DNA of 37,565 bases from a virus. Taxonomy: Duplodnaviria; Caudoviricetes. The notes beneath the pieces were generated by a model. It saw nothing but the letters and a program-made list of their open reading frames with translations. It was not told the DNA's origin and did no database searches. The first letter of the stretch is position 1. Every line of letters starts with the position of its first letter. Positions 1,869 through 37,505 of the stretch are shown here, piece by piece. The stretch is taken from positions 1-37,565 of IMG/VR virus record IMGVR_UViG_3300032243_001234; one strand, written 5' to 3'. A program made the position numbers and the translations under genes.

Positions 1869-1914
1869 AATTTAAATCTCCTTTCGGGTTCTAAACCCCG
1901 TAAGTAATTTGTAA

Positions 1915-3474: not shown

Positions 3475-3484
3475 ATATCACCTT

Positions 3485-5059
3485 TCACAATTCTACAACA
3501 GCGTGATCTGTTGTAATTAAAGTGCCTGCTGCTGATGCAGCATTTTGTAATGCACACCGTGTCACCTTCACAGGATCAATAATACCTGCTTCGTATGCAT
3601 TAATGAATCTCTCGTTAACAGCATCATAGCACACGTCTTCGTCAAAGTCAAGTGCTTGTGACAAAACAACGTCTGGTTTTCCACCACCGTTTTCAACGAT
3701 TGTTTTAAGTGGCTGCTGGCAAGCTTTAACAACAATATCAACACCATATCTCTCTGCCTGAAAATCCACGTTAATATGGAGCCTGTTCTGTGTTGCTACT
3801 TTGGCTAGTGTGATGCCTGAACCGGGGATGATTCCTTCGTCTAGGGCCGATTTAACCGCTTCTAGGGCATCTTCAATACGGTGCTTCTTCTCGATCATTT
3901 CAATCTCTGTTGCGGCACCAACATTAATTACGGCAATACCACTCGCCAAACGTGTAATACGTTCCATTGTTGTTTTAGAAGAATCAAGATCGCTTGATTG
4001 AGCAACTTCTTCTTTAAGAGATTCGATTCGTTCCTGAATCTTATTTGGATCTCCTTTGCCACCCATAATGATTGTTTGAACCTTTGAGCACTCAATTGAT
4101 TTAGCTTTACCTAAATCTTTTAGTTTGGCATTACGAATGTCACCGCCATTTAGTCTTGTGAAGAAAGTAGCACCAAGTGATACAGCAAGATCACCAAGAA
4201 TATTTCTACGCTCTTCACCATAACGTGGTGCTTTAATCGCTGAAACAGCCATTGTTCCACGTAATGTATTCATAATAAGCGCCGCGAGTGCTTGGCCTTC
4301 AATTTCTTCAGCAATAATAACAAGTGGTTTGCTTTCTCTTGCTACAACTTCCAAAACAGGAAGTAACTGTTCAACGGCTTCAATACGTTCATCTGTGATA
4401 AGGAAATATGGATCATTATAACTCATGATTCCTTTACGCTCGTTTGTAACGAATTGTGACGAGGCAAAGCCAGAATCAAAACGGAAGCCTTCAACAATAT
4501 CAAGACTTGTCTGCATCGACTTTGCTTCTTGAATAAGAATAGAACCATCTTTACCAACAAGATCGACTGCTTTGGCAATTAGCTTACCAATACTCTTATC
4601 GCCATTAGCTGAAATGGTAGCAATACGTTCCAAGTCCTGTTCGTCTGAAACAGGCTTTGACCAACGTGGCAATTCATTAACAATGAATTCAACTGCTTTA
4701 TCAATACCACGCTTTAGATCAATTGGTGAAATACCAGCAGCTAGAAATGGCTGTGCTTGAACAAGAATAGAGTGCGCTAATACGGTAGCTGTTGTTGTTC
4801 CATCGCCAGCAGAAGCAGCAGATTGACGAGCAACTTGTTTAATAATTTGTGCTCCAACATTCTCAAATGGATCACTTAATTCAATTGCCTCTGCGACTGT
4901 GACGCCGTCCTTAGTTATAATTGGGTTCCTGCCCTTTTGGTGTAGAATAACATTCTTACCACGTGGACCCATAGTTGTTTTTACATTATTAGCTAGTTTT
5001 GTAACACCATCTAAAATCTTTTTATTTAGTGATGAACCATTATCAAATACTTTCGACAT
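3485..5059 (-). CDS. groEL: Chaperonin GroEL (phage-encoded)
   Basis: TMGPRGKNV, ITKDGVTVA, AGDGTTTATVLA, KAPRYGEERR and GIIDPVKVTR motifs. Start ATG 5059 follows GGAG. No C-terminal GGM tail. Confidence 0.97.
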   Translation of the reverse strand: MSKVFDNGSSLNKKILDGVTKLANNVKTTMGPRGKNVILHQKGRNPIITKDGVTVAEAIELSDPFENVGAQIIKQVARQSAASAGDGTTTATVLAHSILVQAQPFLAAGISPIDLKRGIDKAVEFIVNELPRWSKPVSDEQDLERIATISANGDKSIGKLIAKAVDLVGKDGSILIQEAKSMQTSLDIVEGFRFDSGFASSQFVTNERKGIMSYNDPYFLITDERIEAVEQLLPVLEVVARESKPLVIIAEEIEGQALAALIMNTLRGTMAVSAIKAPRYGEERRNILGDLAVSLGATFFTRLNGGDIRNAKLKDLGKAKSIECSKVQTIIMGGKGDPNKIQERIESLKEEVAQSSDLDSSKTTMERITRLASGIAVINVGAATEIEMIEKKHRIEDALEAVKSALDEGIIPGSGITLAKVATQNRLHINVDFQAERYGVDIVVKACQQPLKTIVENGGGKPDVVLSQALDFDEDVCYDAVNERFINAYEAGIIDPVKVTRCALQNAASAAGTLITTDHAVVEL

Positions 5060-5082
5060 TACTGACTCCAATCTGTCGTTCT

Positions 5083-5110
5083 ATTATACTCACACCGTAG
5101 AAGAAGTAAA
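5083..5110 (-). promoter_or_regulatory. Putative sigma70-type promoter for groEL
   Basis: TTTACT-N16-TATAAT, 24 nt upstream of the ATG. Confidence 0.6.
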
Positions 5111-5129
5111 GAGGCTTTTCAGCCTCTTT
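5108..5129 (-). terminator. Terminator-like hairpin
   Basis: aaagaggct-gaaa-agcctcttt immediately after the stop at 5132. Confidence 0.7.
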
Positions 5130-5131
5130 CT

Positions 5132-6535
5132 TCAATCATCAACTGCCGTATCTTTTACTATTTTCGATGTTTGTTGTGGCAAGTTAGCTGCCAACTGAAC
5201 TGCTTTCTCACCATCTTTTCCTCTGCTTGATGCAGTAGAAGTCAAATAGGATTGTAGTGAACTGGTGAAATCTGCAAGATTATTAAAAATTTCTGTTATG
5301 CTTTGATCAAGTGATTTAACAGCATTTTCGATAATCTGTTCTATCTTTTTATCTGAGAATTCTATAACAATCTGTTTTTGTCCATAACTTCGCGCGAACT
5401 TAGACCAATGCGATTGTGGAATTTCAAATTCTGTTCTTAGACCTTTCTTTGAGACTTTTGTTTTTTGTATCTCTGTTCCAGCAATATCTTTAATTAATTG
5501 ACTTATTTTCTCACTGTCTGGTTCATTTTGAAGTAAGGCACTCAAAGTAGCAAGTGAGCGATCATCCAGATTATTCACAAATAAAGTAAAGTCTCCTACT
5601 TTTGGCATTTCAAAATTATTTGCTTTGAGAACATTAAATGCTATTTCACCACGCTCTTTTGAATTTAGGGTGGCTGGTTTTCCTTTTTTATTTAGAACTT
5701 GACTTTTAAATAGTTGTTGTACTTCTGGACTTAAATCTTGATCTAAACCTGGAACATTTGGCTCTTCTTCGCTTATTACAAAGCCTTCTTTCAATGCACG
5801 CTGTGGTAATTCTAAATTACCGTTAGCATCGGTTGTTATTGTATTTGGTGGAAGTTGCAAGAACTGATTTACATTAGAACCATCAACTACGAATCTAACA
5901 ACTCTTAATTCTCCAACAGGACTCTCGGCACCGGAAGAGTTTTTTAGATAAAGATCAAAATAAACCTTTCCACTTTTATTGATAGAGGTAATCAAATTAG
6001 CAACACTACCTTTTACATGAGCACCAGAAGAAGTTAGTGTTTTAAGTGAAACTGGAATATTACCATCTGTAATATCACCAATATCACCTTGTGCATTTGC
6101 CTCTAATGAACCTTTTTGTTCACTACCATACAAAACACTCAAAAATGCTTCATTAATGAAACCCGCTGGAGAAGGCTGGAAGGATTTAAACATTCGATTT
6201 AAAGTCTCAAGAAGCATAATTTGTGAAAGAATTCTTCTTGGACTCTTAACATCGGCACCAGAAGCAATTTCTTCCATTTGATTTTTAATCATTTGAAGTT
6301 TTTCAAATGGAGTTTTACCACCTCTTGTTGCAGAATCAACAATTCTACTTAATTCAGCTCTTTCTACAGTATTTTCTTTACCCCAATTTTCAGAAATCTG
6401 AAGTTGTGGTAGTTTCAATACTCTCTCTTGTGTCGAGACTTCTTTTTCCTGAACTATTTCAGTTTCACTAACGATCTTTTTGGTTTCTTCCAAAAGATCT
6501 GCCATCTTCCATATTTCTTCCAGCGTAAGTTTCAT
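5132..6535 (-). CDS. Large hypothetical protein
   Basis: 467-aa ORF; no confident motif. Confidence 0.75.
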   Translation of the reverse strand: MKLTLEEIWKMADLLEETKKIVSETEIVQEKEVSTQERVLKLPQLQISENWGKENTVERAELSRIVDSATRGGKTPFEKLQMIKNQMEEIASGADVKSPRRILSQIMLLETLNRMFKSFQPSPAGFINEAFLSVLYGSEQKGSLEANAQGDIGDITDGNIPVSLKTLTSSGAHVKGSVANLITSINKSGKVYFDLYLKNSSGAESPVGELRVVRFVVDGSNVNQFLQLPPNTITTDANGNLELPQRALKEGFVISEEEPNVPGLDQDLSPEVQQLFKSQVLNKKGKPATLNSKERGEIAFNVLKANNFEMPKVGDFTLFVNNLDDRSLATLSALLQNEPDSEKISQLIKDIAGTEIQKTKVSKKGLRTEFEIPQSHWSKFARSYGQKQIVIEFSDKKIEQIIENAVKSLDQSITEIFNNLADFTSSLQSYLTSTASSRGKDGEKAVQLAANLPQQTSKIVKDTAVDD

Positions 6536-6545
6536 TATTTAGACC

Positions 6546-7232
6546 TCATTCAGCGATTTTATCAGCAATACCATAGCTGATCGCTTCTTCTGCGCTAATA
6601 TAAATATTACGCTTTTCGTCAATTAGCTTCTTAATTCGTGCGCTCTTCATTTTTGTTTCACGAGCGAGGGCATCAATATACATTTCTTGTGTTTGGTTGA
6701 TTTCAGCGAATTCATTTTCAATATCGTGAATACCGCCCATAGCACCAGCTTGAACAGGGTGAATCATAACACGGCAATTCTGTCCAATTTCACGCAAACC
6801 CTTTGTTCCAGCAGCCATCAATAAGACACCGGCACTCATTACTTTGCCCATACCAAGTGTGCGAATCTTAATGTCTTTCTTTACCATACACATCGTATCG
6901 TAAATTGAGAACATGTCACTTGCTGAACCACCGTGAGTTGAAATAAGGAAATCAAGTGGTTCGTTTACTTTTACAAGAAGTTCTTTTAGCAGTTCATCGT
7001 TCTTGCCTTTGAACTTGGCAGTAAGATGTTCTGGAAGTTTTACTACTTGATCTCGGAAATGAAATAGTGAAAGGACGATTTCACGGCCACGCTTTTCATT
7101 TACGTTTCCATACAGTGAAATAAGATTCAATTCCTGAACGAATACTGAATCCTCTCCACCTTCTTCGGTTTCTTCAAGTTCCAAGTCATCTTCTAGGCTT
7201 TTACTTTTTTTACGCATCAACATATTAATCAT
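6546..7232 (-). CDS. clpP: ClpP-like protease subunit
   Basis: ISTHGG, GKVMSAG (catalytic Ser), VMIHP (His) and SAEEAISYGIADKI. Confidence 0.9.
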   Translation of the reverse strand: MINMLMRKKSKSLEDDLELEETEEGGEDSVFVQELNLISLYGNVNEKRGREIVLSLFHFRDQVVKLPEHLTAKFKGKNDELLKELLVKVNEPLDFLISTHGGSASDMFSIYDTMCMVKKDIKIRTLGMGKVMSAGVLLMAAGTKGLREIGQNCRVMIHPVQAGAMGGIHDIENEFAEINQTQEMYIDALARETKMKSARIKKLIDEKRNIYISAEEAISYGIADKIAE

Positions 7233-7666
7233 CCCTTCTTGTTACGAAATTCGGTACTGTTATGAGTTTTAGCGCCTAAACCATCTACAATTTTGACACC
7301 CAGTTTATTACATACTTCAACTTCTGGAATATTACCAACAAATCTATCTCCACCTTTTGCGAAGATAAACTTTGTGTCCTCACCTAAAACCATTCTCTCA
7401 TTAAGAACAACAGTTTCAATTGATTCACAAACACTTCCATCCTTGTCAATAGATAGCATGACTTCATCTACTGGCTTTAGTGAACGCATCACTTTCATTC
7501 TAAAATCTTCATCTTGAAAGATCTTACCAATCTTTAACATTTGCTGTTGATCATTATTAACAATAACAACCAATCTATCACCCAATTTCCTAGCCATTTC
7601 TAAACATTCAATATGGCCGGGATGAATTGGGTTCGCATACATTGATGTAATAATTACTGTGCTCAT
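7229..7666 (-). CDS. Cytidylyltransferase-like nucleotidyltransferase (TagD/RfaE-II/RibL superfamily)
   Basis: HPGH (HxGH) motif, ARKLGDRLVVIVNND, FAKGGDR. Confidence 0.85.
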   Translation of the reverse strand: MSTVIITSMYANPIHPGHIECLEMARKLGDRLVVIVNNDQQQMLKIGKIFQDEDFRMKVMRSLKPVDEVMLSIDKDGSVCESIETVVLNERMVLGEDTKFIFAKGGDRFVGNIPEVEVCNKLGVKIVDGLGAKTHNSTEFRNKKG

Positions 7667-8055
7667 TTTTGTACCTTACAGGTTCTACTATTGTGACCTG
7701 ACATACCACATTTACCACAGCATCGACCACTTTGTTTAGCTGATTTTACTACTGTTTTTGAAGTTTTACGGGTTCGCTTTACAGCGACAGCAGTCTTAAC
7801 CCTTTTCTTGTTTCCATCACGATCACATTCAAAAACTTCAAATGGAAGTGATTTTGCGAAGCTTACCCAATTTTTCGGGTCTTGAAACTCTTTACAGAAA
7901 ATATTCAAAATATGACCATTCTTGTTTGTGCCTGTTCCCGTCAGGCGCCAATCCTTAAAGTAAGAGTCAAGTGATTTAAATTCTGTGTTATTTTTAAAAA
8001 TAATTTGTAGATTATAAGTTGTAGGGTTTGTTTTCCAAATACAGCCTTCGACCAT
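7663..8055 (-). CDS. Hypothetical protein with basic tail and C-terminal CCHC zinc knuckle
   Basis: CGKCGMSGHNSRTC. The start at ATG 8055 follows GGAGG. Confidence 0.7.
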   Translation of the reverse strand: MVEGCIWKTNPTTYNLQIIFKNNTEFKSLDSYFKDWRLTGTGTNKNGHILNIFCKEFQDPKNWVSFAKSLPFEVFECDRDGNKKRVKTAVAVKRTRKTSKTVVKSAKQSGRCCGKCGMSGHNSRTCKVQK

Positions 8056-8071
8056 AAAACCTCCAAGCAGT

Positions 8072-8100
8072 ATGATAGCACACGTCGACGGAGCCGTCAA
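8072..8100 (-). promoter_or_regulatory. Sigma70-type promoter
   Basis: TTGACG-N17-TATCAT with a TGn extended -10, just downstream of a terminator. Confidence 0.75.
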
Positions 8101-8119
8101 GTGTTTTCCTAGAAAAACC

Positions 8120-8142
8120 AAAAAGCCCCGTAAGGGGCTTCT
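8120..8142 (-). terminator. Rho-independent terminator
   Basis: aagcccc-ttac-ggggctt followed by TTT. Confidence 0.85.
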
Positions 8143-8173
8143 GGTTAGGAGTTTAGTACCTTGTTTAAGGGAA

Positions 8174-9022
8174 TCAGGCTTTCTTTAAACGTTCTGCTAC
8201 TTTGGCAGCAACTTTTTTAGCTAAAGCTTCTTTTGTGACAGCAGCTTTTGGCTTTTTTGATTCCATTAGGCGAGCCTTGACACGCTTGACTGTTTCAGCT
8301 ACGACTTTTTCAAGAGCAGCTTCATCAAGTGTTGGGTGTGGGGCCATTCCTTCTTCTTCTTCCTCTTCTTCCTCTTCTTCACCGGCTGGCATTTCACCTT
8401 CGGCGGCTTCATGGCCGGGAGCACTTTCATCACCTCCCATCTCGATTTCTGTTTCGTCGCCTTCTTCTTCTACTGAAACAACATCAGCGGCACCTGGAAC
8501 TTTTTCTGTAATGACGCGAATTAGTTCTTTTACAAGACCTTCAACGTCAAGACCACCGGCAGCTGGTGCTTCTGGTGCTTCAACATCTGCCATATCTTCT
8601 TCTGGCATTTCTTCTTCTTTAACAAGACCACCGGCTTTCTTGGCTGGCTTCATTTTTTGTGAAGCTGGTGCGCCTTTCATTTTTGCTGGCTTAGCTGCTG
8701 AAAGAGCTTTGCCTTCTTCTACTTTTTCTTTTCCTTCTTCTTCCATTTTCTTGGCTTCACCAAGATCACGGCCTCTGGCCATATCTCTGTCGTCTTCGCG
8801 ACGTGATTCTGAATCAACTGGCATTTGACCGCCACCTTCTTCAAGTGAAGCTACTTCTTCGAGTTTTTCGCCGTCTTTTTCAACGGCTTCATCTTCCATC
8901 TTCTTGCCGTAAGCTTCTTCAACTGTTTCACTCTCTTTCAAGAATGAATTTGTTAATGGTTGCAATCCTGCAATTTTCATGAATTTGCGAACTGCTTGTT
9001 CTTCTAATAGTTTCTTTGACAT
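8174..9022 (-). CDS. Very acidic low-complexity protein
   Basis: 282 aa, E/A/K-rich with a poly-E run; AGGAG RBS; followed by its own terminator. Confidence 0.8.
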   Translation of the reverse strand: MSKKLLEEQAVRKFMKIAGLQPLTNSFLKESETVEEAYGKKMEDEAVEKDGEKLEEVASLEEGGGQMPVDSESRREDDRDMARGRDLGEAKKMEEEGKEKVEEGKALSAAKPAKMKGAPASQKMKPAKKAGGLVKEEEMPEEDMADVEAPEAPAAGGLDVEGLVKELIRVITEKVPGAADVVSVEEEGDETEIEMGGDESAPGHEAAEGEMPAGEEEEEEEEEEGMAPHPTLDEAALEKVVAETVKRVKARLMESKKPKAAVTKEALAKKVAAKVAERLKKA

Positions 9023-9087
9023 TACTAAACTCCTATTTCTAATAGTAAATCATAAATAAATAGTGCGTGTTAAGCGAAAATCCATAC

Positions 9088-9537
9088 TTATTTGTCTTTT
9101 AGGTCAATTGAACGCTGAATTTCTCTAATTTCGCGCATAACTTGCGATTGTTCACGAATAACAATTCGCTGACTTTCAAGCATTTCTTCCAATAAACGTG
9201 TTTGTAATTCGCTATTTTTTGCGATTGCTGCTACAGCTTTTGCGTTATCTCTTAACACATTTTCAAGGCTCTGACGAATATACCAAACTTTTACGCCGTC
9301 TTGATCGTCTTTATCGTGCCATTCATATAATGTATGAACTTCTTTACTTAGATTATCAAAACGAACTTTTTGTTCTTTGCCGTCATCAACGAGTGATTGT
9401 ATTTGTTCACTCATTAACTTGATTTTAACGTCACTTGATTGAAGGTTCTTATTGCCCAACCAAACCATAACTTCTCTGGTTACGATTAATAGTAATGCGA
9501 CCACTAAACCCATTGCTGTCATATCTGTTGTTGGCAT
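9088..9537 (-). CDS. Membrane-anchored coiled-coil protein
   Basis: N-terminal hydrophobic helix AMGLVVALLLIV followed by heptad-like sequence. Confidence 0.7.
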   Translation of the reverse strand: MPTTDMTAMGLVVALLLIVTREVMVWLGNKNLQSSDVKIKLMSEQIQSLVDDGKEQKVRFDNLSKEVHTLYEWHDKDDQDGVKVWYIRQSLENVLRDNAKAVAAIAKNSELQTRLLEEMLESQRIVIREQSQVMREIREIQRSIDLKDK

Positions 9538-9569
9538 AAAAGAACCCTCTTAAATACTATAATTAGTAT

Positions 9570-9809
9570 CTAGTCTTCTAGTTGTTTCATGCCTTTTTTA
9601 ATCTTTTTTACAGCATTATCTTCAATTTGTTTGATACGGACGAATGAAACTCCTAGTCGATCTGCCACTTGTCGTAGCGTCATAGGTCCATTCTTTTTAA
9701 TGGCTATCAAGTCACAGTTTAGATCTTCACCATGTTCAATCCAATGTTTACATTCTTTAAACGGACACTGAACTTCACCTTTTACACAAGCCTCTGAGCA
9801 TTCTTTCAT
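9570..9809 (-). CDS. Stand-alone sigma70 region-4-like HTH protein with Cys-rich N-terminus
   Basis: MTLRQVADRLGVSFVRIKQIEDNAVKKI matches the sigma region 4 pattern TLxEV…GVxxERIRQIExxALxKL. Confidence 0.8.
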   Translation of the reverse strand: MKECSEACVKGEVQCPFKECKHWIEHGEDLNCDLIAIKKNGPMTLRQVADRLGVSFVRIKQIEDNAVKKIKKGMKQLED

Positions 9810-10180
9810 TTTTCATCCTCAAATAAGTCATAAATGTCTTCGATTTCATCGGGATTGAGTTTGAATTGGCGAATTGTTTTACGCATTTTCTCACGTTCCT
9901 TTTTGATAATCTCGGTGCGATACTTAAATCTTTCTTCTCTTACGGCTTCATCAATAATTTCATTAATTCGTGGATCATCTTTCAAAAAAGCATCGATTAG
10001 AATTTGAAAGAATCGACGAAATGATATGTTTTCGTGCCGAATCTTAATAAGGAAGTCGGCATACAACTTTTCAGGAAACCTTAAATAAACCTGTCGTAGA
10101 TTTTTAATTTCCTGCTGAATTACTGATGGTTCTTCTTTTTCACTTGGCATTTCGGTGAAGGATGTGTGTAAAGCTTTCAT
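9806..10180 (-). CDS. Hypothetical protein
   Basis: 124-aa ORF. Confidence 0.65.
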   Translation of the reverse strand: MKALHTSFTEMPSEKEEPSVIQQEIKNLRQVYLRFPEKLYADFLIKIRHENISFRRFFQILIDAFLKDDPRINEIIDEAVREERFKYRTEIIKKEREKMRKTIRQFKLNPDEIEDIYDLFEDEK

Positions 10181-11183
10181 TCATTCCAGCAGAACTTTGT
10201 AGAACGAATTGAGCCTTTTCCCTTAATTCTCGTAGTGAACGAGCACCAGAATAGGATAGTCCACTCTTGATATTACCAATCAAGTCATCAAGAATATCAT
10301 TTACTGAGCCCTTGTAATTAACAAAGGTTGCAATACCTTCTGGTGAAGATGATTTACCACGCCAGTTCATCTGTGCTTCTCGTGAAGCCATACCACGATA
10401 TTCTTTTACAAGTGAGCCGTTTGGATTTTGAATAAGATTTCCTGGTGATTCATCTGTTCCGGCGAATAGTGAACCAGCCATAATGGCATCTGCGCCAGCG
10501 GCGAGGGCTTTTACAATATCGCCAGCATATTTGATTCCGCCGTCAATAATAATAGATGGCTTATTTGAGCCACAATCAGGCGATTTACGAGCGTTAACAC
10601 AATCAAACAAGGCAGACATATTTGGTAGTCCGTGGCCGGTATTAATTCGTGTACTACATATCGCACCTCCACCTACGCCTACACGAACAGAATCGGCACC
10701 CCATTGAGCTAAATGCTTATAACCAGCACCAGTAGCAACATTACCAGCCATTAAGTGAAACTTGCCACGTTCTGGTAATTTTTCTAGTGTTTCTAGAGCT
10801 TTCTTAACTGAGATGTGATCGCCATGTGCAACGTCGACACAAATTACTTTTACACCTGTTTTAACAAGTTCTTGTGTTCTCTCGACGAAATCATCTTTTA
10901 CACCAACAGCAGCACCAACCATATAGCCATCACACTTTTTAATAATCGATGTTTGCTGTTCAATTGAATTGTAACGGTGAACGATACCTAATCCACCTTT
11001 GTTTGCTACCGAAACAGCCATTTCGTGCTCTGTAACAGTATCCATTGGTGAAGTAATAATTGGTGTATTAAGTTTTAGTTTGGTGTCTAACTGTGAACTA
11101 ATATCTACTTCACTGCGAGATTCAATATCACTGAAAGACGGCACTAATAAAAAATCATCAAACGTTAGAGATTTTTGAAACAT
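10140..11183 (-). CDS. IMP dehydrogenase / GMP reductase family enzyme without CBS domain
   Basis: LTFDD, SPMDTVT, DVAHG, GNVAT, GVGGGAICSTR (catalytic Cys), DGGIK and YRGM motifs. Start ATG 11183 follows AGGAG. Confidence 0.92.
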   Translation of the reverse strand: MFQKSLTFDDFLLVPSFSDIESRSEVDISSQLDTKLKLNTPIITSPMDTVTEHEMAVSVANKGGLGIVHRYNSIEQQTSIIKKCDGYMVGAAVGVKDDFVERTQELVKTGVKVICVDVAHGDHISVKKALETLEKLPERGKFHLMAGNVATGAGYKHLAQWGADSVRVGVGGGAICSTRINTGHGLPNMSALFDCVNARKSPDCGSNKPSIIIDGGIKYAGDIVKALAAGADAIMAGSLFAGTDESPGNLIQNPNGSLVKEYRGMASREAQMNWRGKSSSPEGIATFVNYKGSVNDILDDLIGNIKSGLSYSGARSLRELREKAQFVLQSSAGMNESFTHILHRNAK

Positions 11184-11442
11184 CTTCTCCTGCTTTCTTT
11201 TCGAAAAAATCCTTCGCAATTTGTTGTGCTTTGTGCCAGCATTCGGGACAGTAAAGATGGACTTTTTGTTCAACATTCTTTACGACAACAAACCAGCTTT
11301 GAACTTGCTCCTTGTTCTTTCTATCAAACGGAGAAGCACAAGTCAAGCAGTTTTCTGGCAAACGATCAAACATGTTCAGTTTTTGATTTAAATCTTTTTT
11401 CTGCTGTTTGTGCGTTTGCTTATTTGGTTCGATTTTTTTCAT
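11158..11442 (-). CDS. Hypothetical protein with CxxC…CxxC zinc motif
   Basis: CLTC…CPEC. Confidence 0.7.
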   Translation of the reverse strand: MKKIEPNKQTHKQQKKDLNQKLNMFDRLPENCLTCASPFDRKNKEQVQSWFVVVKNVEQKVHLYCPECWHKAQQIAKDFFEKKAGEDVSKISNV

Positions 11443-11737
11443 CTATTTCCTTTTCTACTTTCGCTAACTCTTTTTTAAAGAATCTTATATGATCGGTTGA
11501 GTATTTGTGGACGGGATTATCATAATCAGCCCATAAAATGCTGTATGATATTCCATCGCTAAAATTGTCTGGATAGGATTTATAGTAATGGTCTGCTGGA
11601 TCGATAGGCTCTGCGGATACTATTATACCAAAAGTATAATATACAATTATATCTCTTGGATCGGTGTTGAATACATCACCGTCACGGGCAGACTTTATTT
11701 CAAAATCAATTACTAAATCGCCTATCTTATGATCCAT
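11420..11737 (-). CDS. Small hypothetical protein, 'KIGDLV' family
   Basis: MDHKIGDLVI N-terminus. Confidence 0.65.
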   Translation of the reverse strand: MDHKIGDLVIDFEIKSARDGDVFNTDPRDIIVYYTFGIIVSAEPIDPADHYYKSYPDNFSDGISYSILWADYDNPVHKYSTDHIRFFKKELAKVEKEIDEKNRTK

Positions 11738-11753
11738 TACATACTAAATATGC

Positions 11754-11933
11754 TTAGAGTTTGCCATAACCTCCAAACCCGAGCATATCTTCTGTTAGTT
11801 CCGTAAGCAATTTACAAGGCATCTGTGGGTCAAGTTCTAAAATATCAATACCCATCATATTTTCTGCTACAATCTGCTGCTCTGCCTCACGACGAGCTTT
11901 AATAATTTGATATTTAAGAATTTCGTTTTCCAC
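11754..11933 (-). CDS. Small hypothetical protein
   Basis: GTG start after GGAGG, directly downstream of a promoter. Confidence 0.6.
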   Translation of the reverse strand: MENEILKYQIIKARREAEQQIVAENMMGIDILELDPQMPCKLLTELTEDMLGFGGYGKL

Positions 11934-11954
11934 AAGAACCTCCAATGATTAAGC

Positions 11955-11983
11955 AGTTTAGCACGGATCGTGCCGCCTGTCAA
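11955..11983 (-). promoter_or_regulatory. Sigma70-type promoter
   Basis: TTGACA-ggcggcacgatccgtgc(17)-TAAACT. Confidence 0.8.
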
Positions 11984-12468
11984 TCAGCTTTGTTTGACAT
12001 AGTGTTAATTAGTGGTCGACTTGACGTTCCTTTATTAAAAACAACTACCATCGAGGGAAACGGAGCACTATTTTTGCCTTCGCCAAACTTTAATCGTCCT
12101 TTAATAAAAGTGATCTCATTCACAATAGAGCCATTTAAACAGTATTCGTGGAACCATCGTGTGTCCGCGCGCACGGGCAAAATCATGACAACAGTTATAT
12201 CATTTAACAAAACCTGTTCTGCTGCCTTTTTTACCCAATCATATATTTTGCTATATGGTGGATTAATAAAAACAGTTTCACCAGCCCAATCTTGTTTTAG
12301 ACCATCATCATCAAGTGTAAAATACTTTACACACTTACGATTAACATGATCAGCGGCTGGATCAAGTGTAAAGTTGTATATCTTGTTTAACTTTTTAAAC
12401 AGCCATTCGGGTGTTGACCACGAATCTGTTTTGTGCGAGAACATAACATTTAAATCTTCTTTGTCCAT
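11980..12468 (-). CDS. Phage-type DNA N6-adenine methyltransferase
   Basis: WSTP, FTLDPAA, DGLKQDW, FINPPYS and FIKGRLKF motifs. Confidence 0.93.
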   Translation of the reverse strand: MDKEDLNVMFSHKTDSWSTPEWLFKKLNKIYNFTLDPAADHVNRKCVKYFTLDDDGLKQDWAGETVFINPPYSKIYDWVKKAAEQVLLNDITVVMILPVRADTRWFHEYCLNGSIVNEITFIKGRLKFGEGKNSAPFPSMVVVFNKGTSSRPLINTMSNKAD

Positions 12469-12473
12469 AAAAT

Positions 12474-12500
12474 ATATCCTGTATAATAAATACAGGATAT
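12474..12500 (-). promoter_or_regulatory. Perfect 10-bp hairpin covering the methylase RBS (translational control and/or terminator)
   Basis: atatcctgta-tttatta-tacAGGAtat; ends 5 nt before the ATG. Confidence 0.6.
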
Positions 12501-12530
12501 CATAAAGAAGTTATATTTTAAGTATTAAAT

Positions 12531-13316
12531 TTATGCTACTCTTTCTTTATATACTTCAAATTGATCAATTGCTACTGGATTGGTATCATATCTAGCCCAC
12601 ACTCTTATTCCCATATATCCTTTTCCGCTTGCAGCAGCACCGTCGCCATTTGGATTATTTGCCCAAGGAATATATGCACCGGTTTTTGTTCGTGGAATAT
12701 TAACTGTATGTCTTTCTGTCCATACATCCGGAGTTGTTCTTTCTGCAGTATATACTGTTATTTTATCATAAGCTCCTGATATTGGAGAAATATCCATTCT
12801 CATGCCTTTCCAGATATTATTTGTTGTTGATACACTAATATCTTTACTATATCCATATGCATTATAAGCAGGATCAAGACTATCGGCAACTGGATTAGCA
12901 TTAATTGAATTACAGAACAAAGTTAAATATCCATTACTACTACAATACAAACCATAGCCAAGAGAGTTCTTCATATTTTGAAAAGGATCTGGAGGATATG
13001 TGATTGATAAATCGCTGTAATTTTTAAATGTTAAAAGAGTTCCACAAGCGTTCCACTCTGCTCTCGTCCACACTCTCATAGAATATCCATATCCATATTC
13101 ATATCCAGATGAGCTTGTTAATTCAGAATTACCAATGGGAATCATTGCAAGCTGACGATATGATTGAACGCCATTATCTGGTTGAAAATATCTACACCAA
13201 TCACCAGAGCTAGTTAATGGATTTGAAAAATCAGTATGTAGTTTTGCGCTACCGGAAGTTCCACCAATAAAAGTATTTGCATCAGCTAAAATAAAATTCC
13301 AATCACTTTGAGACAT
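12531..13316 (-). CDS. Hypothetical beta-rich protein (G/S/N/Y-rich, possibly lectin-like or virion-associated)
   Basis: 261-aa ORF with AAGGA RBS; function guessed from composition only. Confidence 0.7.
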   Translation of the reverse strand: MSQSDWNFILADANTFIGGTSGSAKLHTDFSNPLTSSGDWCRYFQPDNGVQSYRQLAMIPIGNSELTSSSGYEYGYGYSMRVWTRAEWNACGTLLTFKNYSDLSITYPPDPFQNMKNSLGYGLYCSSNGYLTLFCNSINANPVADSLDPAYNAYGYSKDISVSTTNNIWKGMRMDISPISGAYDKITVYTAERTTPDVWTERHTVNIPRTKTGAYIPWANNPNGDGAAASGKGYMGIRVWARYDTNPVAIDQFEVYKERVA

Positions 13317-13336
13317 ATATTAAATTCCTTTATCAA

Positions 13337-13498
13337 TTATGGCCATGAACCAGAATCGTATGTTTCTGAAAACACAACTGAACCTGTAAAAGTTGGATAT
13401 ATTATACTTCCAGTATCATATGTTCCAATCCAACTTGGATATTCAAATGATTCTTTAAAAGATATAATTGGTGATTTTCTATAAAAAAACAATCCCAT
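13337..13498 (-). CDS. Unannotated 53-aa protein
   Basis: MGLFFYRKSPIISFKESFEYPSWIGTYDTGSIIYPTFTGSVVFSETYDSGSWP fills the gap exactly; AGGA upstream. Confidence 0.6.
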   Translation of the reverse strand: MGLFFYRKSPIISFKESFEYPSWIGTYDTGSIIYPTFTGSVVFSETYDSGSWP

Positions 13499-13502
13499 AA
13501 TC

Positions 13503-14210
13503 CTATATAGTTATATTTTTCAATATATCCCTTGTTTGTTCCCAATTTTCCACATGTGATACACTGGAACCTGGAATATCCAAGGAAGCAATAGCGATAT
13601 TTCTATCATTGCCGCCTTCACAAATTCTATCACCAAAAAAGTGAACTGGTCCTTTTAGTTGTTTTAGGACTTGTTCCTTACCTGTTCCTTTTGGATAAAT
13701 GTCAATTGATATTTGACCACCTGTATCAAATTGTAAATCTTTGAAAACAGGAGCAAGAACGGTATCAATCAATTTTCTTCTTTCTTCCGAGGACTTTTCC
13801 CATTCAACATAATTTAAGCGTTGTTCTTGTGAACAGTTTCTGCCAACAGTAGAAAAATTAACCATACCATTTCTTATTTCAATATGTTGACCGGCTTTTA
13901 CTGGTGCTTTTGAACTTTCTACAAGAGCCTGTAAAGAATTTAATAAATTTTGTGGTGGATTCCAAACATTATTTGCTATCAGTTCTCCACCAATATAAGT
14001 TTCATTACCAGAACAAGAAAACACAGCTTGGCAAGCCATTAATATTCTTTGTGATAATTGTTCTTGTAGCTTCTTGTAATCTGATCCTGACACAAGATAG
14101 GCTTTGTGTGTTAGGCAGAATTTAAGGAACTGCTCTTCAAATTCTTTTACCATTGGTAAACGATTTGGAGTTAGTGTTCCATCAACATCAAATAAATAAT
14201 TCATAATCAA
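13503..14210 (-). CDS. Eukaryote-type phosphomannomutase (HAD IIB, PMM/Sec53-like)
   Basis: LFDVDGTLT, VSGSDY, IEIRNGMVNFSTVGRNCSQEQR, GGQISIDIYPKG and HFFGD…GGND. Confidence 0.88.
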   Translation of the reverse strand: MIMNYLFDVDGTLTPNRLPMVKEFEEQFLKFCLTHKAYLVSGSDYKKLQEQLSQRILMACQAVFSCSGNETYIGGELIANNVWNPPQNLLNSLQALVESSKAPVKAGQHIEIRNGMVNFSTVGRNCSQEQRLNYVEWEKSSEERRKLIDTVLAPVFKDLQFDTGGQISIDIYPKGTGKEQVLKQLKGPVHFFGDRICEGGNDRNIAIASLDIPGSSVSHVENWEQTRDILKNITI

Positions 14211-14257
14211 TCACCCCACTTATATAGCTTTTTATAAATAAAAAACCTAAACTGATC

Positions 14258-14288
14258 AAACAAAGAAACCGCCATAAAAATGGCGGTT
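14258..14288 (-). terminator. Rho-independent terminator after dut
   Basis: aaccgccat-tttt-atggcggtt followed by a T-rich tail. Confidence 0.75.
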
Positions 14289-14322
14289 AAAATGTAAAGA
14301 GGAATCTCTTTAATAAATTTTA

Positions 14323-14796
14323 TCATTTCTTATCTGTGCTACCCAAAGCACCTGTTCCACGATTTGAAATGGTGATTGGATAATAATCATATAGGTCTGG
14401 CTTATCTCCGGTTTGCTCAAATGCCTTGAAATGAACAACTGGAATCAATACAGCCTGTGCGATTTTATCGCCCTTCTTTAAGGTTTGTGGACCAACACCA
14501 ACATTATGTAGATTCACAAATACTTCACCATCATATCCACTATCTACAACACAAGCACCGACAAGTAATGAACGTTTTGCGGCTACACCAGAACGGTTTT
14601 TAACCTCTAACATATAGCCGTGAGGAATACCAAAACGACACCCTGTTTGTAATAGGGCACAACGACCCGGATCAATAACAACTTCTTCACCATTTGGAGG
14701 ATTGAAGAATAAATCTAATCCAGCATCACTTGGATTAGCGCGTGATGGAGCAATTACATCTGGACGTGTTTTAGCAAATTCAATAATAAGACCCAT
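14323..14796 (-). CDS. dut: Trimeric dUTPase
   Basis: DAGLDL, RSGVA, VVDSGYDGE, IAQAV and RGTGALGST motifs. Confidence 0.96.
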   Translation of the reverse strand: MGLIIEFAKTRPDVIAPSRANPSDAGLDLFFNPPNGEEVVIDPGRCALLQTGCRFGIPHGYMLEVKNRSGVAAKRSLLVGACVVDSGYDGEVFVNLHNVGVGPQTLKKGDKIAQAVLIPVVHFKAFEQTGDKPDLYDYYPITISNRGTGALGSTDKK

Positions 14797-14820
14797 AATA
14801 ACCTCTTCTTTCTTTGTATC

Positions 14821-15819
14821 TCAAATATCGTTTGGTGTAAAGGAGAACTTAATCTGTCCAACCGATTCACAGTTCTGGATAATTGTATCTGCTACAACTT
14901 TCCTAAATGTTTCTTCGTTTCCTAGATCAACTACTTTACCATCGATAATAATGTTCCAGCAGTTGACTTCTTGTAGAATATCTGTTTTGTTAATAAACAA
15001 CTGCGATACACCATTAATACGAATTGACTTAATCAAACTTGTAAGGTTTAAGAAATTAACTTGACGAGGACGGCCAGTTGTAGCACCAAATTCTTGTCCA
15101 ATTCTACGAATATCCCTTAATACTTGTAAATCTGGTTCAAACTGTTTGGCACCAACATATGTGTCATATGCTTTTGCTACACCAATTACTTTTCGCACAC
15201 TCTGTGGTGGAATACCATTTACAATGGCACCTCCAACATTACAGTGAGATGAAGTAACATAAGGATAATCACCCCAATCAATATCTAAATTAAATCCTTG
15301 CGCACCTTCAAGCAAGACTTTTGCGTCTGGATGTGTGTTGAACAATTCTTCATAAATATCGATTGATTTAATATCCTTAAAGCCCTTGTCGAAACGTAAG
15401 CCTTTTCTGGCATACTTATCGCGATATGCTGGACCATTACCACGCTTTGTTGTTCCAATCTTTGTGTCTTGCGAATCTTCATGTAAATGCTCGCCTGTGA
15501 TCAAATTGACACGATGATCAACAAACAATAACTCTCTCGCATTAATACCAGCAGCTTCTAGTTCTTTAATTTCTTCTTCTAGAAGACCAGTATTTACAAC
15601 ACAACCCGGACCAATAATAGATTTTACGCCCTGAACAACACCTGTTGGAATAGCGTGTGTTACAAGTTTTTTACCGTCCTTATAGATTGTGTGACCAGCA
15701 TTATGCCCTCCACCAAACCTAATACAGTGCGTGTATCCGCCATTTTTCAATAGTGAATTGGTAATTTTTCCTTTACCTTCATCACCCCATGCTAGCCCAA
15801 TTATAATATCAGCAATCAT
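14821..15819 (-). CDS. purA: Adenylosuccinate synthetase (short form)
   Basis: WGDEGKGK, GGHNAGHT, IGTTKRGNGPAY, EGAQG, GDYPYVTSS and EFGATTGRPR. Confidence 0.95.
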   Translation of the reverse strand: MIADIIIGLAWGDEGKGKITNSLLKNGGYTHCIRFGGGHNAGHTIYKDGKKLVTHAIPTGVVQGVKSIIGPGCVVNTGLLEEEIKELEAAGINARELLFVDHRVNLITGEHLHEDSQDTKIGTTKRGNGPAYRDKYARKGLRFDKGFKDIKSIDIYEELFNTHPDAKVLLEGAQGFNLDIDWGDYPYVTSSHCNVGGAIVNGIPPQSVRKVIGVAKAYDTYVGAKQFEPDLQVLRDIRRIGQEFGATTGRPRQVNFLNLTSLIKSIRINGVSQLFINKTDILQEVNCWNIIIDGKVVDLGNEETFRKVVADTIIQNCESVGQIKFSFTPNDI

Positions 15820-15823
15820 TTTT

Positions 15824-18800
15824 TCACCCTAAAAGTCTAAAAGACTTGCGAATTGAACGTGTTGAGAAACCAAACTGTTCGTTAAAATCAATCCTACTCA
15901 TGTAGGGCTTATTGATGTGGATAACGTCATTTTCTTGGATACCCCAACAACGAATTTTTGTAACCTTACTAGATGAATCAACTACATCTAGAACCCAATA
16001 TTCCTTGCCGTTCTTTGTTTTCTTTACTTCCTTCTTACGAGGAATAAACCAAACGAACTGTAGCTCTGGATCGTATTCACCGATTGGCTTGATACCATTA
16101 TCCTCCAACTTGTTCATCGTGTCAAGAGACATTACACGATTCAATGGGAAGAATCCGGTCAATTCAGTCAAGAATACAATCTTTTCTTCTTCACTAAAAT
16201 CACCTTCTGGACGATAAAGTTCAAGGTTTTCCTCAAACTTCTTCAAGTTACGAGGCCGATCAACAGCAATAGTGGACCAGAAATGCTTCGCACCAGAAAA
16301 GCGATTATCAATCAAACCATTCAACGCACCAGCACGACAAAGAACGTCAAGAGCCTTCTTATTCAGTTTTGAATAAGACATATACTCGTTGAATAGGAAT
16401 TCTTCTACTGTCTTGAATGGACGATAATTGACAATTTCTTTAAACGCAGTCGCGCCAAGACCCTTAATTGCCATCAATGGCTGAATCAGTGTTTCACCAT
16501 CTTCACTAATCTCCCATACTTCACCAGAAGTGTTAATATCCAACTGCTTGATTTTGAAACCAAGACCTTTGGCAATATTAACTGCTTTTTCCTTACGATC
16601 TTCTGGTTCTTTATCAAGGAACGCAGCCATCCATTCAGCAGAGAAATAGGTCAACAACCAAGCACACTGGTAAGAAATAATGGAATACGAAACAGCGTGT
16701 GATTTATTGAAACCGTAACCAGAGAAGAATTCAAACATCTTCCATTGTTCTTCGGCAGCTTTCTTGGAAATATTCTTTTCTACACAACCAGTAATAAACT
16801 TGTCGTATAGAGCGGTTTTTACTTTATCTTCCTTGCCTGTTCCCTTCTTTGTTAGAACTTTACGAAGCTGATTACCTTCTTCCAGTGAAAGATCCTTGCC
16901 AAGTTTATGAGCCATTGAAGCAATCTGTTCCTGGAAGATAAGGAATCCATAAGTATCTTCTGTCACTTGACGAGCAAGTGGGTGAATATACTTAATACGA
17001 GTTGGTGCTTCTCGTGCTTCTATGTAATTCTTATCTACGTCCGCATTTAGTGGACCGGGACGATAGATAGAGGTAATAGCAGAAAGGTCGATAATGTTTG
17101 TTGGCTTGGCACGTTGACAGAATCGTTGAGCACTATTTTCTGTAAACTGGAAGATACCAGCCCATTTTCCTTCATGGAAAACATTCTTGTATACCTTCTG
17201 ATCATCAAGGTCGATTACATCTGGATGTAGAACTTCATCATAATAGGCCTTAATATCATTAAACGTAGGATTTTTGATACCCTTGTGACGCTTAAGAATA
17301 TGGGAAATAGCAGTTTCGATCATCTTCAAGGTAGCAAGACCAAGAACGTCGAACTTAATAAATCCCATTGGTTCAAGGTGGCGAACGTTTTGACCTTCTG
17401 CCCACGGTGTTTGAATTACACCACCGCTATTAATCAATGGCATTGAACGATCAATCTTTTCAGCTACAACGACACCACCAGCATGACGTGAAGCTGAACG
17501 AATTTGACCGTGAAGGGCATTAACGTGCTGTTTGATTTGTGGATACTTTTCAAGAAAGTTCTTCAACGATTCACTGAATTCCATTACCTCTTCAAAGGTT
17601 GGCACATAAAGACCAGCTTTGATACCATTCTTCTGCTTGGCAAGTGGTGTAGCTTCAAGCATCATTTTGCTTGTTACATCATTGACCTCGGAGAATTCAA
17701 TTTCGTAGAACTTGCTAATATCCTTGATAAGCGATTTAAGTTGTAGAGTATTCCAATTTGTGATTGGCGCAACCTTATCCATACCCCACTCTTTAATAAG
17801 AGTTTCTTTAAGAGTCATTGGATCGGCGACGTCAAAGTCGATATCGGGATAATCCTTTTGATTTGAACGCATAAAACGCTCAAATTGAAGTTCCCACTTG
17901 ATCGGATCAATCTGTGTAATACCAAGAAGATAGGATACAAGAGCACCAGCACCCGAACCACGGCCCGGACCACTGATCATTGACTGATTTGCCTTGTCAG
18001 CAATAGCCTTCATTGTAAGGAAGTATTGTGAAAACTTATTCTGCTTGATTACATCAAGTTCACGTTCAAGACGAGCAGTATATTCTTCCTGCTTCTTTTG
18101 AGCACGCAGTTTTAGATTCGCAAGACCAACAAGAGAAAGACGACGCAATTCATCGTCAGCAGTTGAATTCTCTGGCACAACGAAAGTTGGAAGTTTAACT
18201 GTATTGTCGGGCAAGAAACTTTCAATACGGTTCGTGCCAATATTATGTGCTTCGTGAAGCGATTGAAGAACCACTTCACGGTCAAACGTCATATCGTGAA
18301 TCTTTGAATAGTGTTCAAATGACGCAAACATCTGATCACCATTCTTTGGATATAGTTCATAACCAACTTCATCGACTGAAGCTGGAAGAGTCTTGTCGGC
18401 ATCTTTCTTATTCAGCCAGCCAATCTTCTTGTAAAGAATACGGTCCTTCCACATCTCAGGACGTGGGTAGTGTGAATCGGCTGTTGAAATGGTCTTGAAA
18501 CCAAATTCACCAGAAAGCTGAATAATATACTTATTCAACATCATCTGGTCTTTGGAATCATTCCATTGAAGTTCGCCATACCAACGATCACCGAAGATTT
18601 CCATCATCTTCTTTGTTGTCTCTCGCATAGCGTCTAGAATGACTTTTGGGCCACTTTCGTAGTTTTCCCAATAGTCACCAGCATAAATGCCTCCAAGGCA
18701 CGCAGAAGACGCAATAATGCCTTCATTATACTCTTTCAGCATCTCGTAATCAATACGAGGAAAACGATAATAGTTATCGCCCTGATATGATTTTGAAATC

Positions 18801-19286
18801 AGGGTGAAAATATTATTTAGACCTGTTTGGTTCTGCGCCAGAAGAACAAGGTGACGACGCTTATTCAGGACATTCTTGTTTGAAGTCTTTGATTCGCCTT
18901 CATCTTCAACTGTGAGTGTTACTTCTTCTTCATCGGAGGAAGAAGCCTTTTTGGTAGCCTTTTGGTTTTCCTTGATCTGCTTCCATTCTGCGATAGAATG
19001 ATGAAAATAAGCTTCAACACCAAAGATTGGCTTGAAGCTAATTCCCTTTTCCTTCAACTTTTGTGCGTGAAGAACCTGATAAGGCAGGCCCGACATATTG
19101 CCGTGATCTGTCAAAGCAAGAGCATCCATGCCATTTTCATAAGCAAAGTCAATGTGTTCGTTTGGAAATCCAAGGCCATCAAAAATGGTTCCATTAGGAA
19201 AAGCCCGAATGTGCGTGAAGTCCGACGAACTTAATACGCGAAACGAGCCTTTCCTTGGAACCTCCTTTCTCATTTGTATCAGTCAT
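15824..19286 (-). CDS. dnaE: DNA polymerase III alpha subunit (DnaE, family C), interrupted after codon 30 by a stop and frame change
   Basis: Segment 1 (19286-19197) ends FVGLHAHSGFS. Segment 2 (from 19186) reads IFDG…ALTDHG…GVEAY…SACLGG…ADSHY…GRGSGAG…PDIDFD…HAGG…KFDVLGL…FQEQ…GYGFNKSHA. Confidence 0.95.
19187..19196 (-). other. 10-nt coding gap (TAATGGAACC) in dnaE; candidate bypass or frameshift element
   Basis: mRNA reads CAC GCA CAT TCG GGC TTT TCC [TAATGGAACC] ATT TTT GAT GGC. Removing the bracketed bases gives HAHSGFSIFDG, the canonical HxHSxYSLLDG spacing. Confidence 0.7.
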
Positions 19287-19288
19287 TT

Positions 19289-20092
19289 TTATCTTCCTTC
19301 CCAGTTAGAAATTTTGTGTTTAAACAGGTTGCGGAGAGTATAATACTTCTCCTCGTCTATCAAGTCAAGTTCGTACTGCGGATATTCTTTGATAAACAAT
19401 TCAATTTTGACTTTTGAATCATCATCAAACCATCCTTTTAATTCTACGAACTTATTATCACTTATTTTAAAGTCGGGAGTATAATGAGTTCCATTTGATA
19501 GTAAAAACGAATGTTTCTCATATTCCCAATCAATTTTTAATTCATTTAATATTCTGGCGTAGTTTGCTTCCCAATTACTTCTAAAATAGAAATCGTTTAA
19601 ATCCTTTCTTTTACCACCATTAGCACTTGAATATATAAGTGAAGGATTTTCTTGTAATAACTTTTTTCTACTCAAACTCATCAATTTTTTTGATGCATCA
19701 GAAACAACTTTATTTTTAAGAATATTTTTTAGATATTCTTTATTTTCTGGTACTTGTGCCCAATGTGAATATTTTGTCTTGTCGTATTTATTAAGACCTC
19801 TTGCTTCTCTTTTTTGTAAAAGAAGTTTTTGTTTTTCTCCATATTGAGAATTTTTTAATTTTCTTGTCTCAAATTCTTTTCTTTTCGCTTCTTCGGTTCT
19901 CACATAAGAATTATTTGCCATTCTTTTTTCAGTCATTAAAGAATTCGCACATTCTTTTGTACAACAAACATATTTGGGAGTTCTATATCCAGTTGGAGTT
20001 ATAGAACAAAATTCAATATTACAATTTTTACAAATTTTATGTCTTGCTTGCTGTCTTTTGTGAGAAAGATCCGAATTTACATTTTTTATCAT
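19289..20092 (-). CDS. Free-standing homing-endonuclease-like protein with C-terminal PD-(D/E)XK domain
   Basis: FRSNWEANYARIL…WEYE…YTPDF…FVELKGW; N-terminal CxxC…CC zinc motif; basic linker; more AT-rich than dnaE. Confidence 0.85.
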   Translation of the reverse strand: MIKNVNSDLSHKRQQARHKICKNCNIEFCSITPTGYRTPKYVCCTKECANSLMTEKRMANNSYVRTEEAKRKEFETRKLKNSQYGEKQKLLLQKREARGLNKYDKTKYSHWAQVPENKEYLKNILKNKVVSDASKKLMSLSRKKLLQENPSLIYSSANGGKRKDLNDFYFRSNWEANYARILNELKIDWEYEKHSFLLSNGTHYTPDFKISDNKFVELKGWFDDDSKVKIELFIKEYPQYELDLIDEEKYYTLRNLFKHKISNWEGR

Positions 20093-20128
20093 ATACTACT
20101 CCTTACATACTCATAGAGTAAGTAGTAT
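20093..20128 (-). promoter_or_regulatory. Hairpin overlapping the endonuclease RBS
   Basis: atactact-tactc-tat-gagta-tgtAAGG-AGtagtat-ATG: an 8-bp outer stem plus a 5-bp inner stem. Confidence 0.65.
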
Positions 20129-20155
20129 GATATAACTTTTCTATGGGTGTGTAAA
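20127..20155 (-). promoter_or_regulatory. Putative sigma70-type promoter for the endonuclease-dnaE unit
   Basis: TTTACA-N17-TATCAT. Confidence 0.55.
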
Positions 20156-20168
20156 GTACTAAATTAAT

Positions 20169-37476: not shown

Positions 37477-37505
37477 TTTCAATCTCAAAAATCAACCAGA
37501 TCTAT

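Follow-up and report, generated by a model that had tools for sequence, protein, structure and literature searches.

How is a complete replicative DNA polymerase made from a gene whose first reading frame closes inside a metal-binding motif? The question is raised by the dnaE locus of an uncultured phage, represented by a linear virus record of 37.6 kb (37,565 nucleotides, hereafter the window) that carries replication and nucleotide genes. Judging from sequence comparisons, and with a probability of roughly 0.8, the interruption is one of a family of 5–16-nt stop-containing inserts that are likely carried by a homing endonuclease and likely skipped by programmed ribosomal bypassing.

A genuine break in the dnaE gene

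The gene is encoded on the minus strand in two pieces (Table 1). ORF1 is about 8 residues longer than the corresponding region of the intact alleles P0233, P0236 and P0240, and omission of nucleotides 19196–19187 joins its frame to that of ORF2 as HAHSGFS|IFDG. ORF2 contains the Pfam domains PHP, pol3 alpha, finger and HhH, and the PHP motifs TDHG, GVEAY, RRHL, SACL and ADSHY as well as the polymerase motif PDIDFD could be located in it. Its frame has a called start at ATG 19273, and the called protein lacks HxH. The initial annotation had described a dnaE split by a 10-nt coding gap in the PHP motif, a short ORF that begins at ATG 19286, 2 nt past the endonuclease stop (19289), and closes with TAA, and a long ORF in the +1 frame with a called N-terminus devoid of HxH and an otherwise intact remainder of approximately 1120 codons; all of this is confirmed by the minus-strand frames and by identical letters in relatives, with 1120 codons counted from IFDG.

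Table 1 Features of the dnaE locus in the window
Feature	Coordinates	Strand	Description
ORF2	15824..19186	−	Remaining dnaE, 1120 codons from IFDG, no interruption; resumes at ATT 19186, +1 frame
Coding gap, 10 nt	19187..19196	−	From the stop UAA (19196–19194) to the predicted landing triplet ACC (19189–19187)
ORF1	19194..19286	−	Replacement dnaE 5′ end, 30 codons, N-terminal extension and PHP HxH motif; ends LHAHSGFS, then TAA
3′ arm of stem	19197..19207	−	Last codon is the predicted take-off UCC (19199–19197)
His-Ala-His of PHP metal-binding motif	19209..19217	−	Coded in ORF1 only
5′ arm of long stem	19244..19262	−	Pairs with 19207–19187 around a 2-nt bulge; folding and covariation
Internal Shine-Dalgarno-like AAAGGAGG	19261..19268	−	Immediately 5′ to the stem arm, not followed by a start codon
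Endonuclease, free-standing, 267 aa	19289..20092	−	Cys-rich N-terminus; PD-(D/E)XK (T7 endonuclease I-like) C-terminus
Hairpin over endonuclease ribosome-binding site	20090..20131	−	Predicted, RNAfold only
Possible decayed remnant of original dnaE 5′ end (weak)	20143..20163	−	Reads FSTLHTH, no start codon

The gap is a genuine break in dnaE and not an assembly artefact. The three closest IMG/VR contigs (95% amino acid identity across the next 299 residues) all carry the same letters at the site, and Logan contigs from five of eight runs (X1, which is possibly the source run, X2, X3, X6 and X8) span it without an indel; these are contigs rather than raw reads, and none is one base shorter, the form that the initial annotation had raised against its own claim. 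Assembly error is ruled out as the cause of the gap by these two sets of contigs. The RNA run X20 yielded just one 212-nt contig, which lies inside the endonuclease gene and does not span the gap. Together with the conservation described below, the sequence data indicate that the gap is real and conserved, and probably functional.

Spacing of the PHP motif

The distance from H to D in HxH...D is 7 or 8 in all 116 proteins with a readable motif among the 120 best DnaE homologues, and equally in 125 of 125 intact loci; an intact allele aligns with Taq Pol III alpha over HxH...D without a gap. In the window, the spacing is 7 after a 10-nt skip and 10 after a +1 shift. The earlier claim that the skip restores the canonical DnaE spacing is thus borne out. 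The HxH encoded here and the Asp of IFDG are presumably three of the nine residues of the PHP site.

A family of gaps at one serine codon

Related loci were collected through an endonuclease-alignment search and three pattern scans, which together gave 74 records, 30 distinct loci and 24 distinct take-off-plus-gap strings. The pattern scans demanded Ser-TCN and G[LF]HxH, and matches without a dnaE hit were discarded as chance before counting; loci reached via the nuclease, where no Ser-TCN filter applied, all have Ser-TCN too. The comparison of related dnaE 5′ ends that the initial annotation had called for thereby shows gaps of 5–16 nt at the same dnaE Ser codon in 30 distinct loci, with 125 loci intact. 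DnaE proteins of the other gap loci share 34–64% identity with the window DnaE over 300 residues.

Among the 24 strings, the gaps measure 5, 6, 7 (three strings), 8, 9 (eight), 10 (six), 11, 12, 15 and 16 nt. At this one codon they fall into frames 0, +1 and +2 in 11, 10 and 3 strings, respectively, which is the frame independence expected of bypassing. The gap opens with a stop codon in 24 of 24 strings (TAA in 12, TAG in 8, TGA in 4), as bypassing calls for a stop or hungry codon directly after take-off, and in the two scans that left the gap content free, 31 of 31 non-duplicate dnaE rows open with a stop. Two stops lie inside 5 of the 11 in-frame gaps, and a stop in the resume frame lies inside 3 of the 13 out-of-frame gaps (3 of the 10 in the +1 class); neither readthrough nor a single-base shift can therefore serve the family. 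The locus L194 carries UCG-UAG-UCG, a literal stop-hop of 9 nt that is in-frame.

Beyond these loci, a DnaE search of metagenomes returned 80 loci (79 readable), none with a gap or nuclease. In a search of 50,697 GenBank phage records, matches to the nuclease were confined to distant endonuclease I-like proteins and all DnaE matches were below 60% identity (best rows approximately 28–35%), so that these records supply no host or isolate for the family.

Two observations concern other DnaE homologues. P0017, P0015 and P0025 have abnormal or shortened N-termini, where further gaps or errors are possible, and the N-terminus of P0017 resembles an out-of-frame reading of the HxH region. At positions 128–1898 of L189 (minus strand), the gap-bearing dnaE ends approximately 260 residues into the second ORF, in an intein-like segment followed by a nuclease-like ORF; the likely reading is a 'fractured gene' of the split-intein kind within this polymerase.

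Landing triplets

The end of each gap was set by protein homology (S-x-[FYMG]-D). In 23 of 24 strings, C occupies the middle of the last gap triplet, as against just 4 C in 83 bases of the gap interiors. The triplet reads UCN in 13 strings, permitting re-pairing; the other 11 (ACN in seven, GCN in three and UUG in one) carry one mismatch, and 10 of these keep the third base of the take-off codon exactly. By the wobble rules, the third base is compatible with the take-off tRNA in 24 of 24 strings (permutation p = 5e-4, a value that the relatedness of the loci makes optimistic): a UCC take-off is never paired with a landing third base A or G, and UCG never with C. The window, with UCC (19199–19197) as predicted take-off and ACC as predicted landing, has a first-position mismatch and conforms to this pattern; the near-matching codon ACC at the end of the gap, pointed out in the initial annotation, is thus an instance of the family landing rule. 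The matched end triplets could in part be a relic of target duplication.

These properties bear on whether the window allele instead uses a +1 ribosomal frameshift at UUU-UCC-UAA, which would restore the frame and add three residues. From ORF1 through the gap, the +1 frame has no stop, UUU-U permits perfect re-pairing, and UCC followed by a stop resembles the antizyme shift site. However, none of the 116 proteins or 125 loci has an H-to-D spacing of 10, as the +1 product would, and the window's end triplet follows the family landing rule. Within the family, 14 of 24 gaps require a net shift of 0 or +2; a +1 shift is useless for gaps of 5, 6, 8, 9, 11, 12 or 15 nt and is blocked by the resume-frame stop in 3 of the 10 +1-class gaps. 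We consider such a frameshift very improbable. Two further variants for the window were rejected: loss of only the two bulged nucleotides of its stem (see below) gives the wrong frame, and take-off at UUU with landing at the UUU of IFD would lose two conserved residues.

A long-range stem ends at the predicted take-off codon

A long stem is predicted in the window, in which the 5′ extension is complementary first to the codons ahead of take-off and, beyond a 2-nt bulge, to the gap (−39.7 kcal/mol, z-score of −4.4, reached by 0 of 200 shuffles). The stem is found in 30 of 30 gap loci, with a median for the best duplex of −19.3 kcal/mol (range −13.2 to −31.2), as compared with −8.2 kcal/mol (−3.9 to −15.5) in the 125 intact loci; the six intact loci that bear a nuclease reach −3.9 to −6.2 kcal/mol and have no stem. 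RNAalifold predicts the same helix unprompted from a MAFFT alignment that comprised 24 of the 30 loci and was not fitted to structure. Over the eight pairs that run up to the take-off C, pairing holds in 91% of cells, and six of these pairs change on both sides; 0 of 500 shuffles reach the observed covariation, and slid registers give 39–62%. The unusual residues GRS in L170 and GSS in L248 are matched by changes in the arm, and compensatory changes are seen in the window and L204 where the stem pairs with the gap. Automatic selection of the stem register picked a wrong one for L191 and one shifted by a single position for L194.

The sequence GGAG lies 4–9 nt before the 5′ arm in 28 of 30 loci and in all three reading frames, against a background of 37 in 1370 windows (2.7%); the exceptions are L248, where it is absent, and L191, which has GGAT. 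It could also be a relic of an ancestral start site or a simple pairing partner of the landing region.

How far the stem reaches into the gap varies, from full coverage at some loci to no gap base at all at others. In several loci, including the window, the predicted stem spans the entire gap and the landing triplet, pairs that cannot coexist with a ribosome at that place. The correlations of gap length are weak, both with the number of gap bases that are paired (rho = 0.34, p = 0.07) and with the length of the GGAG spacer (rho = 0.43, p = 0.04). Together with the variable coverage, they argue against a simple ruler model.

The initial annotation had assigned the signal to a UUCC-UAAU-GGAA take-off hairpin. 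This hairpin can form in the window (−3.3 kcal/mol) but is outcompeted by the long stem, and, forming in only 5 of 24 gap strings, it is ruled out as a family signal. A mini-Shine-Dalgarno inside the gap at the T4 distance (5–7 nt before landing) occurs in 1 of 24 strings. As predicted from the alignments, the conserved signal is the long-range covarying 5′ stem that ends at the take-off codon, together with the upstream GGAG, neither of which was part of the earlier description.

A duplex of this kind might alternatively guide excision of the gap from the mRNA by a trans-acting ribozyme or by a nuclease and ligase, or be left from a group I intron. The guide-like duplex does terminate at the junction, and L189 has a stranded 5′ end followed by a predicted stem. 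Against this, Rfam searches at the gathering score gave no matches in the window or in six loci and two chance-level matches in 12 more loci; the terminal G is not conserved, as gaps end in C, G, T or A, and the catalytic core and terminal G that mark group I introns are absent. No bulge is conserved either, the gap being fully paired in some loci and unpaired in others, and splicing leaves the third-base wobble rule unexplained. Excision of the gap at the RNA level is accordingly judged highly improbable.

A probable mobile endonuclease cassette

The gene upstream of ORF1 matches PF05367 (E = 9.5e-8) and the PHROG 945 endonuclease (E = 1.4e-14), and its 267-aa product is likely the homing endonuclease of the cassette. 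It has 32 homologues with 50–88% identity. The endonuclease alignment retrieved 25 viral loci, in which all 15 near full-length matches lie directly upstream of dnaE; three of these 15 loci are near copies of the window, six more have a gap at the same Ser codon and six are intact with an altered motif. A genome-contig search with the nuclease gave two distant matches, neither beside dnaE.

The nuclease or a remnant of it is directly upstream in 21 of the 30 gap loci. A nuclease accompanies 6 of the 125 intact loci; all six were fetched by the endonuclease query, and it is present at none of the 119 intact loci that dnaE queries retrieved. In nine gap loci, a stranded former 5′ end of dnaE, reading RFxG[LF]HxH and closing at a stop within a few codons, immediately precedes the nuclease; this indicates that the cassette entered within these codons and brought a replacement 5′ end. 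A role for this stranded segment as a true exon was rejected, its end point being variable and its occurrence confined to nine gap loci.

The window DnaE is 95.7% identical to the intact allele P0240 over the first 300 residues of ORF2 and nests among intact alleles, and the starred branches of a quick tree (from which L220 and L225 were omitted as too short) force at least three gains or losses of the gap. The family thus shows the arrangement of a homing cassette, with a nuclease beside its disrupted target and a patchy distribution among close alleles. Relative to L001 and L003, the nuclease and ORF1 show 0–1 differences per 100 bases, and in a stretch of 280 nt that begins 11 nt beyond the gap the figure is 11–14 per 100; this step fits a conversion boundary, although identity returns further on. 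By analogy with MobA, we infer that the nuclease cuts the intact site.

Some loci carry one component of the cassette only. L194, L204, L210, L212, L221, L238, L248, L258 and L289 have the gap and the stem with no detectable nuclease, and in L194, L212 and L289 a trace of the nuclease 3′ end persists before the start codon. The nuclease-bearing intact loci L164–L167, L169 and L175 (a partial match) have diverged motifs (SLHSHD, SMHMHS, SIHNHC) and no stem, and possibly represent a second route to immunity, via target change or gap loss. The PHP alleles under one cassette are mosaic: the 280-nt patch directly past the gap (18900–19175), 11–14% divergent from L001 and L003 in an otherwise near-identical context, includes a short compensated frameshift near 19092–19096.

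Proposed decoding of the gap

In the history that we propose, the endonuclease would have inserted within the HxHxxFS codons, leaving the host's old 5′ end upstream, and the cassette would have supplied a new dnaE 5′ end whose gap spoils the cassette's own target site. During translation, the ribosome would stall at UCC-UAA, holding peptidyl-tRNA-Ser on the first codon with the stop in its A site. By then the 5′ arm would be translated and free, and it could zip onto the 3′ arm as the latter emerges from the mRNA channel, and the ribosome would slide, re-pair at ACC and restart decoding at AUU. Pairing of GGAG with the anti-Shine-Dalgarno, bridging the looped-out stem, may hold or place the ribosome; this is the weakest step. 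From ribosome geometry, the usual gap of 9–10 nt would approximate what the take-off codon needs to clear the ribosome and complete the stem.

Bypassing had been put forward in the initial annotation as one of three routes to a full-length polymerase, and is supported by gaps in all frames, stops in 24 of 24 strings, matched landings and the covarying stem. The 10-nt hop fits the family; the +1 shift fails on 14 of 24 gaps and on a spacing of 10, and RNA excision on the lack of a ribozyme or conserved junction.

There might also be no recoding at all, if translation started in the second frame (at ATG 19273 in the window) and the polymerase worked without HxH or with the 30-residue peptide supplied in trans. 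Split phage enzymes adjoining homing endonucleases are known, and this ATG is in-frame. The PHP exonuclease site comprises nine residues and three zincs, and, in the available text of that study, E. coli Pol III alpha is functional with five of the nine ligands altered (PMC5636811). However, 18 of 30 loci close the resume frame within three codons of the gap, and the distance to the first start codon downstream ranges from 0 to 142 codons, with no position shared among loci. All downstream PHP ligand motifs are retained, and neither the stem covariation nor the matched end triplets would serve any function. Expression without recoding is therefore very unlikely.

Beyond skipping of the gap as such, a fuller picture is put forward tentatively, at just short of an even chance. 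The gaps would constitute a family of miniature hops that is widespread in nature. A long-range stem, seeded by the 5′ end of the gene itself, would act as a forward ratchet on a ribosome stalled at the stop, and a remote Shine-Dalgarno across the looped-out stem would fix the landing firmly enough for a two-of-three tRNA match to suffice. The whole would be a portable module of less than 100 nt, would include the first natural in-frame stop-hops and would gate a proofreading-competent phage DNA polymerase.

Comparison with known bypass systems

The best reading of the sequence data is a mobile endonuclease cassette with short bypassing that would work like T4 mobA/gene 60 and be unrelated to it. 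As described in the accessible parts of the T4 reports, the gene 60 bypass and the MobA element place an endonuclease in an essential replication gene (10.1101/2022.08.31.505936; PMC7026636). Both systems share a nuclease in such a gene that brings a new N-terminus and a coding gap, a stop after take-off, a landing triplet that the take-off tRNA could decode (in the dnaE family with one mismatch in 11 of 24 strings), a 5′ stem that may drive the ribosome forward, and loss of the nuclease in some members.

There are also differences from these T4 accounts. The T4 host gene is the topoisomerase II large subunit, at Gly46/Asp45, and the take-off codon in that family is Gly or Asp, whereas here the gene is dnaE and the codon Ser. 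The nuclease of the T4 family is MobA HNH, or GIY-YIG/VSR, as opposed to the PD-(D/E)XK (PF05367/PHROG 945) enzyme of the dnaE cassette, and its gaps span 20–50 nt rather than 5–16 nt. The T4 take-off stem-loop and the mini-Shine-Dalgarno 5–7 nt before landing are conserved there, but have counterparts in only 5 and 1 of the 24 dnaE strings. Conversely, the 5′ stem is conserved and covarying in the dnaE family, whereas the T4 5′ stem-loop occurs in one clade only (10.1101/2022.08.31.505936), and the first-position landing mismatch, common in the dnaE family, is absent from all gene 60 family cases as reported. The main text of that paper, in its available portion, makes no mention of dnaE or a polymerase; its supplements could list other genes.

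In hop length and in having a 5′ stem with a flanking Shine-Dalgarno, the dnaE gap is closer to the terminase of Streptomyces phage phiHau3 than to T4, as far as the consulted text of the phiHau3 study extends. There, a 10-nt bypass (a short hop in the 7–10 nt range) was accompanied by a proposed 5′ stem-loop with a flanking internal Shine-Dalgarno, and mass spectrometry demonstrated bypass in E. coli with UUA replaced by UAA (PMC10732093). The phiHau3 trigger is a hungry UUA that is thought to be regulatory, whereas all 24 dnaE strings have a true stop (TAA, TAG or TGA); the gene and codon also differ, and the same text describes no homing endonuclease (PMC10732093).

Synthetic 'stop-hops' have matched codons around a slow A-site codon, as here, and L194 is the exact 9-nt form; a 2016 review, in the sections available, knew of no natural in-frame stop-hop (PMC5009743). 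The mitochondrial byps of Magnusiomyces, as outlined in the seen part of the gene 60 family paper, are unlike the dnaE gaps, with 27–55 nt, an unused sense codon and relaxed mitochondrial ribosomes (10.1101/2022.08.31.505936). A literature search, with subscription papers mostly outside its coverage, found no report of dnaE bypassing.

To our knowledge, T4 gene 60 with its relatives, the yeast mitochondrial byps and the phiHau3 terminase are the only well-supported natural cases of bypassing. The dnaE gaps would add an independent bypass family in a replicative polymerase, with 24 natural variants that separate the signals: hops of 5–16 nt, all frames, three stops, mismatched landings and a covarying 5′ stem. 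What drives and what stops a sliding ribosome would become testable in short reporters. The cassette would also represent a repeated solution, in which a homing nuclease breaks its own target inside an essential motif. In practical terms, gene callers assign false N-termini without HxH to such polymerases (for example, P0001, P0231, P0234 and P0242).

Other genes of the window

A second nuclease gene, at 36973–37488 (minus strand), is endonuclease VII/HNH-like (PHROG 3322 and 1035) and lies beside a 5′–3′ exonuclease gene. Positions 1518–15819 are rich in auxiliary genes, comprising adenylosuccinate synthetase, IMPDH/GMP reductase, dUTPase-like, phosphomannomutase, Dam, ClpP, chaperonin and Hsp20 genes. 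A 467-aa ORF at 5132–6535 (minus strand), between the groEL-like and clpP-like genes, matches an ADP-ribosyltransferase domain only weakly and below the cutoff (PF15634, E = 0.003).
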